Made by a program: the position numbers and the translations under genes. Under the pieces are notes generated by a model. The model was not told where the DNA came from. It saw nothing but the letters and a program-made list of their open reading frames with translations, and did no database searches. Source: Candidatus Babeliales bacterium (lineage in GTDB: Bacteria; Babelota; Babeliae; Babelales; JANWKD01). From it: a stretch of 64,000 nucleotides of DNA. Below, in pieces: positions 1 to 3,787 of this stretch. The first letter of the stretch is position 1, and every line of letters begins with the position of its first letter. Location of the stretch: contig CAVXJH010000005.1 in NCBI GenBank assembly GCA_963762115.1, forward strand, positions 96,001-160,000, written 5' to 3'.

Positions 1-1242
1 GCTTTTATACCCATAATAAATACCCCAAATGCCAAACCCCATACTTAAAGCAACCACTAACCTATGCGTATTTTTATACTCATAAGCAATACATGCGCAT
101 GCAAGGTCACTTAAAGGATATTCTGAATGCAAAAATTTTTCTCTCATAATATCTATACAAACACCTAAGGACGATCCAAAAACACAAGCCCCCAAACCAA
201 TACCCAAAAACCTAGACCCATTTAATAATGTATTCCCATCGAAGAATGTCTTTATTCGATGCCGATTCTTCTCTAAAAAACTTGGCATTACAGCAGATAA
301 AGCAATATTGATTGCCTGACCGGAAAGAGGATTATTGCGTAAATCAACAAGGCCATTTTCGCCAACTTTAAAATGCGGCAACTCTTTTATTTTATTATCA
401 TTCAAAAGCACAACAGCACCATCAGGTAGCCTTCTTGGCAAAAATAGTTTTTTTCCATGATTGCCGCTCATATGAATTTCATTCACCCCAGGAAAAGTGC
501 TAAACAAATGCGTAACATCAAGAATTTTTAAATTATTCTTATCAAAAGAAATGCCCTTAATCGTTGCACGCCCATATTCTTCTGCTACCAATTCAATGCC
601 TTTTAGTGTATCAAGATCTTGACCCTCAATAAAAAGAACACAAGAATCATTATCATCTAAATCAGTTCCTAAGCGATGTATTTTTAAAGCGCCTTCATGG
701 CGCAAACTACGTAGTGAATTCAAAAACCATCCGGATTTTACGTATTCAGGTTGCTCATGAGAAAGTAAAACTCTTTGTGCTTGATAGGTTAATTTTCGCA
801 TAACATTTTTTGGAGCACCCAAAAAATCAGTCGCATCAAAAACACGAACTAATGCTTCTTTTGTGTCAATTTTTTTTATTTCTTTGAGATCTGCAATACA
901 ACTAAAAACTGCTTTTAACGTATCAGCACTCAGATCAAGCGGTTCAAGTTCATCATCTGCACCAACATCATGAAAAATACCGTCATAATTCCCAAATGGT
1001 GGAGTGAAATCTACTATGTGCCCATCAAATGAACATTCCTTTTCACCTGCAGGAGCTGCATCTTCGTGAGCATCACCAAAACAATTGCGAATTGTGCTTG
1101 CTTGCATTGCAACATACCGAGGAACGCCTATCACATTTCCATCAGTACAACGAATTGCAATTGTTGACTTTGGCTTTTCCATTGCATGAGAAAAAAATAC
1201 ACTCAACATACAAACAAAAAATAATTGCTTTTTTAAAAACAT
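1..1242 (-). CDS. Secreted Skp1/POZ-like + LRR-like protein, paralog 1 (3' end runs off window)
   Basis: Not in ORF track. Hand translation from ATG 1242: MFLKKQLFFVCMLSVFFSHAMEKPKSTIAIRCTDGNVIGVPRYVAMQASTIRNCFGDAHEDAAPAGEKECSFD...LPHFKVGENGLVDLRN. No stop in the segments translated, including 1-180. Clear paralog of the next two genes. Confidence 0.85.
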   Translation of the reverse strand, partial: MFLKKQLFFVCMLSVFFSHAMEKPKSTIAIRCTDGNVIGVPRYVAMQASTIRNCFGDAHEDAAPAGEKECSFDGHIVDFTPPFGNYDGIFHDVGADDELEPLDLSADTLKAVFSCIADLKEIKKIDTKEALVRVFDATDFLGAPKNVMRKLTYQAQRVLLSHEQPEYVKSGWFLNSLRSLRHEGALKIHRLGTDLDDNDSCVLFIEGQDLDTLKGIELVAEEYGRATIKGISFDKNNLKILDVTHLFSTFPGVNEIHMSGNHGKKLFLPRRLPDGAVVLLNDNKIKELPHFKVGENGLVDLRNNPLSGQAINIALSAVMPSFLEKNRHRIKTFFDGNTLLNGSRFLGIGLGACVFGSSLGVCIDIMREKFLHSEYPLSDLACACIAYEYKNTHRLVVALSMGFGIWGIYYGYKS

Positions 1243-1274
1243 ACTCAAAACCCAATCACTATAATAAAAAAATT

Positions 1275-2588
1275 TTAATTAGTTGCTTCTTTTTCGCCAT
1301 CTTCATCTTGATCAACAACAGCCTGACCAGACCTGAATTGATACTGCATATTATGATTCAGGGCTTGTGGAAAAACATGCCCAATATAAAACGCCACCGT
1401 TGTAGTAAGAGGCCAAGAAAATAATACTGCTACAAACAAAGGATTTCTACAATGGTCATACAACATGGGTAGAAGTGGTTCAGAGCGAAAAATTTTAAAT
1501 GCACCAAGGGGAAGGCCAACAAATATTCCTGAATAAATTACAAAACCTGCTCCCGTACGCAACATTACATAAGGATCAACGAGTGTTTTAAACACGGGAC
1601 GATGTTTTTGAAAAATAGTAGGCTTCTTAATGATTACATCAGGATTAATTTTTAGCTTATTATGCTTAAGACTTACCACGGCTTGCTCAGGAATAAAAAA
1701 AGTTTCTTCATCAAGACAATTATGATTTAATCGCACACTCACAAAATGCGGCAATGAGGATGGCCAAATTACTTTAGTTGTACCATTATTATTTGCCTTA
1801 ATTTTTTGCAACCCAGGCCAACAAGCAAATAATAATCTAATATTCAGCGTTTTAAGATTATTATCGCTAAGATTTAAACGTGTCACTGAGGGACATGCTA
1901 GAGCAACCTCTTCAATACCTGCCAATGTATCAATTTGACGTGATTGCAACGGTAAAGAATTGATTATTTTCGCACAATGAATCGAACTTGCTAGACGATT
2001 GCTTTTAAACAATTGTTTTATGGTAGTGAAATAATGCCCTTCATCTAACATTGCATAAAGCGGATTTTCGCTGTTATCTCTAAATTCTTTTTTAGAAATG
2101 AGAGAAGATGCACGTTGCGACAATTGCTGCATTATATTTTCTGAAACGCCCAAACAATGTGCCACTTCAAAAACATACATCACGTCTTCTTTATCAAGTT
2201 GTTCTATATTTTTTTCATCGGCGATACAATCAAAAAGTATCTTTAATGTTGCGGTGTTAAGATCAAGAGCTTCCACTTCTTCACGAGTACTAAAAACCCG
2301 ATTGAAAACATGTTGAGTGAAATCTACGGTGCGCACATCAAATGAACATTCTTTTTCTCCTGCAGGGGCTGCATCTTCATGAGCATCATCAAAATAATTC
2401 CGAATTGTGCTTGCTTGCATTGCAACATCTTGAGTAACGCCAAATATTCTTCCATCAGTGCCGCGAATAGCAATTGTTTGCATTGGTTTCTGCACTTCTT
2501 GTTGTTCCATACCATATACAACACATTGCGCCATTAAAAGTATGTATAAAAAAATATATCGATTACGTATTATAGAACCAACTTTCAT
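1275..2588 (-). CDS. Secreted Skp1/POZ-like + leucine-rich-repeat protein with C-terminal hydrophobic segments, paralog 2
   Basis: Signal peptide then MEQ. TIAIRGTDGRIFGVTQDVAMQASTIRNYF resembles the Skp1 N-terminus. LRR units VTRLNLSDNNL, LQKIKANNN, VRLNHNCL. Two hydrophobic stretches near the C-terminus. Confidence 0.8.
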   Translation of the reverse strand: MKVGSIIRNRYIFLYILLMAQCVVYGMEQQEVQKPMQTIAIRGTDGRIFGVTQDVAMQASTIRNYFDDAHEDAAPAGEKECSFDVRTVDFTQHVFNRVFSTREEVEALDLNTATLKILFDCIADEKNIEQLDKEDVMYVFEVAHCLGVSENIMQQLSQRASSLISKKEFRDNSENPLYAMLDEGHYFTTIKQLFKSNRLASSIHCAKIINSLPLQSRQIDTLAGIEEVALACPSVTRLNLSDNNLKTLNIRLLFACWPGLQKIKANNNGTTKVIWPSSLPHFVSVRLNHNCLDEETFFIPEQAVVSLKHNKLKINPDVIIKKPTIFQKHRPVFKTLVDPYVMLRTGAGFVIYSGIFVGLPLGAFKIFRSEPLLPMLYDHCRNPLFVAVLFSWPLTTTVAFYIGHVFPQALNHNMQYQFRSGQAVVDQDEDGEKEATN

Positions 2589-2599
2589 AAGTATTAAGA

Positions 2600-3787
2600 T
2601 TATTCTGGTATACCTTCTTGATCATCGGTCAAAATCTGACCTGGCTGAAAAATATCTTCTTCTGACCGATCAAAAATGCATCCTGCTCCAAGCGTCAAAA
2701 AAGTACCAACAACAGATTCAAATAAAAAAAGTTTTTGAAAAAATGCATCATCAATAAAGCCTTTATCTAAATAACGGAGTACAAGGACTGCCTCAGCATG
2801 TGCTGGAAAAGTGGCTAAAAAAAGCGGCTCCGCCAACATTCTTTTACAAGGTTGTGTATAAGGTCTATAACGTTCCAACAATGTTGGTTGCACTGCATAC
2901 TGACAAACTTGCAATGATTGCTCAGAAAACTTTCTGTATATATATTTCCATCCTCTCCGCAAATCAACAATCCCTTTTTCACCAATTTTAAACCTCGGCA
3001 GTTCTTGGATAGGATTGCAAATAAGATCAAGTCGAAAATTATCCGGCAATCTGTTGGGCATAATAAGACGTTCAATACGATTATTAGAGGCAATAAGCAC
3101 TTGCAAATTTGGCAATAATTCCAATAACTGCATAACATTAAGCACTTTTATTCTATTTGCTACTAAACTGAGAGAAATAATATTCTTATTGTTAAGATGC
3201 TGCTTTGCTATTGCATCAATCCCTATCAATGAATCAATTTTTTGTTTTTCAATTTTGAGTCTGTGTTCAGATTGATCTAATTCAATTTTTAAACAATTCT
3301 TACCGTGTAAATATCGTATTGAACGCACATAATAATCATTTTGTACCAATTCAGGCTGTTCATCAAATAGTACTAATTCCTGAATATAACAACTTAATAA
3401 ACGCATGAATTTTTTAGAAGCACCGAGAACCTCCCCTGCATCAAATACAGAAATTAATGATTTATTTTCAAGATTTTTTATTTTCTTTTTTGAATCTACA
3501 CAGGCAAATAATGCTGACAAGATATTACTGCCTAAATCAGTGTATTCAGCTCCATCATCACTTTCCATAAGCTCGACTACAACGTTAGCTTCATCAGATT
3601 GTTGAGATACATCAAAATATTCATGAAATCTACTTAACTTTGTCTCCACACCATTCGGAACTTCTACCATTTTTCCATCAGAACATTGAATTGCGATAGT
3701 CTTTTGTGGCATTTCTTCCATACCATGCATACACAAAAAAATTATAAAAAAGCTACAACAAAAAAGGCCATGTTTTATGTATGACAT
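2600..3787 (-). CDS. Secreted Skp1/POZ-like + LRR protein, paralog 3
   Basis: Signal peptide then MEE; TIAIQCSDGKMVEV; LRRs ISLSLVANRI, LQVLIASNNRI, LDLICNPI. Confidence 0.8.
   Translation of the reverse strand: MSYIKHGLFCCSFFIIFLCMHGMEEMPQKTIAIQCSDGKMVEVPNGVETKLSRFHEYFDVSQQSDEANVVVELMESDDGAEYTDLGSNILSALFACVDSKKKIKNLENKSLISVFDAGEVLGASKKFMRLLSCYIQELVLFDEQPELVQNDYYVRSIRYLHGKNCLKIELDQSEHRLKIEKQKIDSLIGIDAIAKQHLNNKNIISLSLVANRIKVLNVMQLLELLPNLQVLIASNNRIERLIMPNRLPDNFRLDLICNPIQELPRFKIGEKGIVDLRRGWKYIYRKFSEQSLQVCQYAVQPTLLERYRPYTQPCKRMLAEPLFLATFPAHAEAVLVLRYLDKGFIDDAFFQKLFLFESVVGTFLTLGAGCIFDRSEEDIFQPGQILTDDQEGIPE

Follow-up and report, generated by a model that had tools for sequence, protein, structure and literature searches.

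The window, a stretch of 64,000 nucleotides (G000:C5:96001-160000) from a genome assembled to 1.53 Mb in 7 contigs, which we take to be that of a member of Candidatus Babelota (Dependentiae/TM6), begins with three intact, paralogous open reading frames (ORFs) arranged in tandem on the minus strand. These genes, here called A, B and C, encode proteins of 395, 437 and 439 amino acids (aa). They share one architecture, consisting of a signal peptide, a domain of predicted POZ/BTB fold that resembles eukaryotic Skp1, about five leucine-rich repeats (LRRs) and, towards the C-terminus, one or two segments that are moderately hydrophobic. An earlier note on this DNA had described an array of three such genes. 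All three are there, but the array has four members, as another paralog of 478 aa lies beyond the window edge at G000:C5:94389-95825. Pairwise identity within the array is 26-42%.

Gene A occupies window positions 2600..3787 (like all positions given for the array, on the minus strand). Its predicted signal peptide (aa 1-22; 3722..3787) is presumably cleaved before ME, judging from the sequence and the leader rule described below. The Skp1-like POZ domain and the helices after it follow (aa 27-148; 3344..3709), then the LRR region with its cap (aa 173-312; 2852..3271) and a main hydrophobic segment (aa 353-371; 2675..2731) with a Kyte-Doolittle (KD) value of 1.78. Gene B (1275..2588) is built in the same way, with a signal peptide predicted on the same basis (aa 1-26; 2511..2588), a Skp1-like POZ domain with the helices after it (aa 33-181; 2046..2492) that was modelled with a predicted local distance difference test score (pLDDT) of 85, an LRR region with cap (aa 211-334; 1587..1958) and a pair of hydrophobic stretches at aa 349-367 (KD 1.77) and aa 384-402 (KD 1.78), together spanning 1383..1544. 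The three segments that the earlier note had aligned by eye with Skp1 all lie in this 437-aa protein. Gene C covers 1..1242 of the window (ORF 1-1242/1248); its 3' end lies 78 bases left of the window edge, and genome-wide it encodes the full 439 aa (G000:C5:95923-97242). It shows the architecture of gene A: a signal peptide predicted by the same rule (aa 1-20; 1183..1242), a Skp1-like POZ domain with following helices (aa 24-168; 739..1173), about five LRRs with a cap (aa 199-331; 250..648) and a glycine-rich hydrophobic segment (aa 345-363; 154..210; KD 1.98). Over a 178-bp tract (window 2312-2489 and 999-1176, minus strand) that covers the first half of their POZ domains, genes B and C are 83% identical in DNA sequence; the whole proteins are 36% identical. 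By its sequence, this tract looks like the result of gene conversion.

The fold of the N-terminal domain was assessed with an AlphaFold2 (AF2) model of the gene B domain (pLDDT 85), which shows helices at 101-114, 118-131 and 134-139. A Foldseek search with this model gave a best E-value (E) of 2e-4 and 11 matches at E<=0.001, with a template-modelling (TM) score of about 0.57, and all 45 matches listed came from Skp1-containing entries. With VIA-align, the model matched a BTB domain with Z 9.2 (root-mean-square deviation (rmsd) 2.2, 92 residues aligned), Skp1 with Z 9.0 (rmsd 3.4, 106 aligned) and Elongin C with Z 8.1 (rmsd 1.9, 77 aligned). When the last helices were considered, the BTB/3-box region of SPOP gave Z 8.6 (rmsd 3.3, 116 aligned), about the same as Skp1. 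Among the 50 matches listed, 48 were named as BTB, Skp1, Elongin C or complexes thereof. The POZ fold, which the earlier note had set as a test of its proposal, is thus predicted, and we consider it secure as a prediction. The attachment of this domain to LRRs was also borne out: a two-domain model (pLDDT 85) contains about five LRRs and a cap, and the LRR model aligned with GPIb-alpha at Z 12.2 (rmsd 3.0, 123 aligned). The region consists of LxxLxLxxN repeats with conserved L and N positions and scores below the Pfam cut-offs.

Sequence comparisons place the domain near Skp1. In single-sequence searches the resemblance is faint. Gene B alone among the three window proteins matches Pfam Skp1_POZ, with an E of 0.15 and 15.3 bits, below the curated cut-off of 21.9. 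Two of 17 family members match this model at E<=10 (best E 0.0022), none of them above the cut-off, and no match to Pfam BTB (PF00651) was obtained for any of the 17 at E<=10. Searches of the PDB with single sequences returned Skp1 chains at E 0.26-1.3, mingled with ANP32, trypsin and other noise. We then used a profile of the window family (17 sequences from five genomes) against the PDB. Of the 38 sequences found at E<=10, 33 were Skp1, and these all ranked first, more than chance would give. Yeast Skp1 was the best match, with an E of 1.2e-5 that is partly owed to two acidic inserts that align; human Skp1 followed at 3.6e-4, one BTB entry was found at 0.88, and Elongin C was absent from the matches at E<=10. 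As in Skp1, the POZ domain of the family starts at strand B1, without an N-terminal dimerisation extension.

The window proteins have many relatives in their own genome. Two profiles (E<=0.01) identified 29 Skp1-like proteins, 9 of them with LRRs and most others with WD40-type beta-propellers (the propeller type); a few consist of a POZ domain alone or carry two POZ domains. The nine LRR paralogs of the window type comprise the four in the tandem array and five on contig C3. A profile of 21 propeller-type sequences matched Skp1 with an E of 2e-25; Elongin C followed at 2e-8, and no BTB protein scored better than 0.5. The same profile aligned with the window family in hhalign with a probability of 96.5. 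The propeller type is clearly derived from Skp1, and these comparisons support the same descent for the window domain. The assignment to Skp1 over BTB or Elongin C rests on sequence, because the structure comparison ties all three. Of the label Skp1/Elongin-C-like that the earlier note had given, the Skp1 half is upheld by profile and Foldseek matches and is favoured over the Elongin C half by sequence. The window proteins are not strict members of the Skp1 family, nor are they Elongin C or Pfam BTB proteins.

Eukaryotic Cul1 recruits substrates through two pieces, Skp1 and an F-box protein, and Cul3 through one, a BTB protein. We propose that the window genes encode one-piece adaptors for a host cullin-RING ligase that would need neither host Skp1 nor an F-box protein, a reading to which we give a little less than an even chance. 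The proteins likely reach the host cell: they would be exported by the Sec pathway and, in a second step, cross the outer membrane, for which two secretins are present. The tail would then insert into a vacuole or host membrane, the LRRs would capture a host protein as substrate, and the POZ domain would dock on a host cullin; by descent, a Cul1-type cullin is the first guess. If the adaptor function holds, the proteins would work like BTB adaptors. The domain order mirrors the logic of Skp1-cullin-F-box (SCF) ligases, with the POZ domain first and WD40, LRR or RCC1 repeats after it, and the POZ domain stays with LRRs in most full-length window-type members (47 of 63 profile matches). The fused cullin adaptor put forward in the earlier note would be a plausible mechanism, and the case for it is stronger for the propeller-type relatives than for the window genes.

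Export is the first step of this mechanism. All four tandem genes have at their N-terminus a leader that ends in (A/G)ME. We formulated our own signal-peptide rule, a hydrophobic stretch followed by xME, which was passed by 27 of the 29 Skp1-like proteins of the genome versus 3 of 888 internal control windows, and by 184 of 1102 genome ORFs of at least 150 aa. The xME leader is a candidate for a lineage-specific export tag, and by this rule the four proteins carry an export signal, in agreement with the earlier description of them as secreted. The hydrophobic C-termini also mentioned there are present, but only moderate: the one or two segments are glycine-rich, with 19-residue KD peaks of 1.5-2.0. 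A signal peptide together with a C-terminal hydrophobic segment would by default anchor a protein in the bacterial inner membrane, and this combination could mean that the window genes encode envelope proteins, of the inner membrane or the surface, that never meet a host cullin. We give this explanation a slim chance, since soluble propeller-type paralogs carry the same leader, the segments are only weakly hydrophobic and rich in glycine, the genome has two secretin genes, and a eukaryote-derived domain has no known periplasmic partner. Sec export has been proposed for many effectors of Chromulinavorax (PMC6561590, available text), and the accessible part of PMC4776705 reports components of type II secretion throughout the TM6 genomes.

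Besides this default anchoring, several observations weigh against docking on a cullin. In structure, BTB, Skp1 and Elongin C are not separated by VIA-align, and in a viral library (BFVD) BTB proteins come out on top, with Skp1 proteins close behind. In sequence, motifs of Cul1 contact are missing or mostly replaced. Skp1 contacts Cul1 through PxPN in strand B3 (PMC1257465, available text). Of 96 representatives (45% identity), 87 were used for motif counts, since anchoring failed for 8 and one had no LRRs. Strict PxPN occurs in none of 41 window-type sequences, none of 6 of other LRR types and 12 of 40 of the propeller group, and a looser pattern in 2 of 41, 0 of 6 and 19 of 40, respectively. 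N[YF]L[DN] (NYLD), which we take to be a second Cul1-contact region of Skp1 (N108/Y109), is found in 3 of 41, 2 of 6 and 21 of 40; our literature search found no paper that gives the role of these residues. Neither motif is present in any of the four tandem genes. The contrast between the groups is overstated, because some of the seeds of the propeller group were Pfam Skp1 hits and related sequences are not independent, but the absence of PxPN from the window subfamily stands. As this canonical motif has been lost, the subfamily might just as plausibly bind through a remodelled interface or bind a different cullin. Most conserved positions of the POZ domain appear to belong to its hydrophobic core, and conservation is lower in the POZ region than in the LRRs (0.30 vs 0.39).

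Some of this evidence could also mean that the Skp1-like domain of the window subfamily has lost cullin binding. An exported LRR protein tethered to a membrane would then keep a host protein at the vacuole, with the Skp1-like domain as its folded cap or as a new surface for binding. This would agree with the loss of both motifs, with the weaker conservation of the POZ region, with the lack of an F-box-helix signal in the subfamily (see below), and with the existence of LRR-only relatives without a POZ domain (L013:2381-3166 and L018). It would also agree with a tree of 89 domains in which the window subfamily forms a separate, long-branched group with 94 in the Shimodaira-Hasegawa-like approximate likelihood ratio test (SH-aLRT); this tree is unfinished and poorly resolved, with 50 of 86 inner branches unresolved and only two eukaryotic rows, both divergent, so we claim neither a donor nor a single origin. 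However, most full-length members have kept the POZ domain, and its region is where the majority of gene pairs in the tandem array agree best in DNA sequence. We consider such a loss of cullin binding unlikely, though well worth weighing. The adaptor reading was also put to a complex prediction, with the gene B POZ domain and aa 1-270 of a stand-in cullin. The score was 0.01 against a mark of 0.32, which counts as no answer, with the controls not folded, and speaks neither for nor against binding; the stand-in is a stramenopile protein annotated as cullin 1, with an alignment of 48 rows, for which Cul4B and Cul3 rank above Cul1 among the PDB matches.

The other end of Skp1 was not detected either. 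F-boxes are bound by helices alpha7 and alpha8 of Skp1 (PMC1257465, available text). None of 261 genomes gave a match at E<=0.001 to PF01466, the corresponding F-box-binding tail, in a search that had no working positive control, and the match of the propeller-type profile to human Skp1 stops near residue 137 of 163. With no such tail detected, the anatomy of the proteins is in line with a bypass of the F-box. No cullin was found in 251 genomes, again by a search without a positive control, so any cullin partner would be that of the host. The source genome gave no match to F-box PF12937 at E<=0.01.

Many propeller-type proteins have an LPxE-like helix after the POZ domain. We built a matrix of F-box helix 1 from 28 Babelota F-boxes, which themselves score 21-36. 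The linker scored like F-box helix 1, above shuffled sequences, in 10 of 40 propeller-group representatives, where about 2 are expected; in the window subfamily the signal was at chance (2 of 41), a further point against the adaptor reading there. We rejected the idea that the propeller-type linker contains a complete F-box: in the PDB, a profile of 13 linkers matched LRR proteins but not a single F-box, Pfam gave none in 21 members, and just 1 of 40 linkers scored at least 15, compared with 21-36 for the training F-boxes. From its sequence, the helix is possibly a remnant of helix 1 or a 3-box-like element. Among the genomes, F-box-like matches at E<=0.01 were absent from G000 (the source genome), G003, G020 and G037, for which 9-14 Skp1-like matches are listed. 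G136 shows the reverse, with 20 F-box matches and none of the Skp1-like kind, and G174 has both. A trade-off between F-box and Skp1-like proteins is possible.

Descent from Skp1, and the POZ-only and multi-POZ paralogs in this genome and its relatives, would also suit decoys that tie up a host cullin or sequester host F-box proteins at a membrane, damping SCF ligases rather than redirecting them. We regard this as improbable, because helices alpha7 and alpha8, which bind F-boxes according to the available text of PMC1257465, were not detected, and because so many diverged repeat domains would be unneeded. Returning to adaptors, it is possible, although we would not call it probable, that Babelota captured a host Skp1, cut off its tail and multiplied it on repeat proteins as Cul1-docking adaptors, some with a remnant of F-box helix 1, and that the window genes are a membrane-tethered branch with a rebuilt cullin interface.

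The family is spread across the phylum. The propeller-type profile matches 69 of 261 genomes at E<=1e-5, in 44 of 145 genera, and the Pfam Skp1_POZ cut-off is passed by propeller-type and POZ-only proteins in 10 of 41 genomes of relatives, where the domain is plainly Skp1, versus 0 of 14 control genomes. Besides propellers, the partners of the domain include canonical LRR arrays and RCC1 repeats. The window subfamily itself is narrower: near full-length matches occur in five genomes, four of them within its own family. A search that hit 66 genomes did so mostly through the LRR part alone. The POZ profile of the subfamily matches 63 clusters at 50% identity, of which 47 have LRRs by an LRR profile made from the same family. 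Of the 16 without LRRs, 10 are fragments of <200 aa. One of the matches is a named nematode Skp1-domain protein. Searches of plasmids found no relatives; neither did searches of named genome contigs with single-protein patterns. Viral contigs, searched for close relatives with two fusion queries including P0189, gave none.

Several variants were observed among the relatives. Two or three Skp1-like domains stand in tandem in P0043, L028, L033, L039, L046 and L053. The paralog L002:5047-6624 (G000:C3:415046-416623) has an N-terminal partial duplicate of the leader and the first POZ strands. Two near-identical POZ-only genes (G000:C6:584669-585163 and C3:585999-586382) lie near the ends of their respective contigs; one is shorter and differs at the C-terminus, and the pair is perhaps an assembly overlap. 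The propeller-type proteins L025, L029, L032, L034 and L036 have, by eye, a common C-terminal helical segment with an LP motif. A second LRR-type fusion in other Babelota (L134, L150, L136 and P0194) has canonical LRR arrays and lacks the hydrophobic tail. P0189 (552 aa) combines a Skp1-like domain with RCC1 repeats, lacks a signal peptide and ends in a lysine/tyrosine-rich motif of a kind known from giant-virus proteins.

Among known systems, eukaryotic Skp1 (PF03931 + PF01466) shares the POZ core fold and is the best match in sequence and in Foldseek. Unlike it, the window proteins are bacterial, carry LRRs and a signal peptide, and have no PxPN and no detectable F-box-binding tail. Elongin C, the Cul2/Cul5 adaptor, is likewise a core-only POZ fold and ties in structure (Z 8.1), and it provides the top matches of a feature search at 0.85-0.86, which is below 0.9 and serves as a lead only. 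However, it is not among the window profile matches, and for the propeller group it falls 17 orders of magnitude behind Skp1. It also lacks helix A5 (PMC1257465, available text), whereas the window POZ model has further helices. The giant-virus Skp1/BTB proteins in BFVD have the same fold and occur in protist parasites (the Fadolivirus SKP1 component gave TM 0.58), but are viral and apparently lack a signal peptide.

The closest parallel in architecture is the PEX1 family of Protochlamydia, with 73 members that combine BTB and LRRs, carry type III secretion signals and have been proposed as one-chain cullin adaptors (PMC4209131, available text); 43 Protochlamydia BTB-LRR proteins are noted in the accessible part of PMC1257465. 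Like the window proteins, PEX1 is an expanded, partly tandem family of a protist endosymbiont with an N-terminal POZ fold and C-terminal LRRs. By its published description, PEX1 has BTB domains and type III signals, whereas the window proteins are Skp1-like and have a Sec-type leader and a hydrophobic tail. The statement in the earlier note that described bacterial mimics usually use F-boxes leaves out this family, in which adaptor and receptor are already one chain (PMC4209131). Legionella AnkB and the Neochlamydia F-box-LRR effectors also aim a repeat-domain receptor at the host SCF system; these effectors need host Skp1, whereas the window proteins carry their own Skp1-like domain and no complete F-box.

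Babelota are obligate parasites of protists, with amoebae, Spumella and a ciliate as known hosts (PMC12172432, available text), and are rich in ubiquitin-system mimics (PMC4378268, available text). For Babela, the accessible part of that paper lists F-box, RING and WD40 proteins, deubiquitinases and one LRR protein, with Skp1 appearing in a reference title only. Skp1 and BTB are absent from the main text of the Chromulinavorax (PMC6561590) and TM6 (PMC4776705) papers, and no mimic of Skp1 is mentioned in the available text of a virome screen from 2026 (PMC13769053). A literature search that included few subscription papers and no supplements found no description of bacterial Skp1-derived fusions. 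One-piece BTB-LRR adaptors are thus known from Protochlamydia; Skp1-derived ones and a phylum-wide family of them we could not find in print.

Next to the array, the window encodes, by Pfam matches, an MFS (major facilitator superfamily) transporter (window 4312-5469), an amidase (7114-7971), a RecD2 helicase (7962-10148), an ankyrin protein (13225-14625) and a Tn5-type transposase (15192-16580). The assignment of the genome to Babelota comes from the housekeeping protein RecD2: its nearest named relatives, at 51-63% identity, are in records labelled Dependentiae, TM6 or Babeliales, while many of the 47 loci bear just the label 'uncultured bacterium' and a few have other labels. Pfam searches with the ORFs at 10434-11396 and 11425-13029 gave zero matches. 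On the other side, beyond the tandem array and on its strand, lies a gene for a 479-aa membrane protein (G000:C5:92771-94210, L001), by eye a putative ATP/ADP translocase.

If the adaptor reading is true, this phylum would have turned Skp1 into a large family of one-piece adaptors, a new route to the takeover of host ubiquitin ligases, and would offer a natural experiment on the origin of BTB-style adaptors from Skp1. The propeller-type members keep Skp1 motifs, which makes a direct test of Cul1 binding easy, and the diverged members in the window would test how far a cullin interface can drift. Host manipulation by this phylum of protist parasites is almost unstudied, and the reading also suggests, for dozens of hypothetical proteins in each genome, a role that can be tested.

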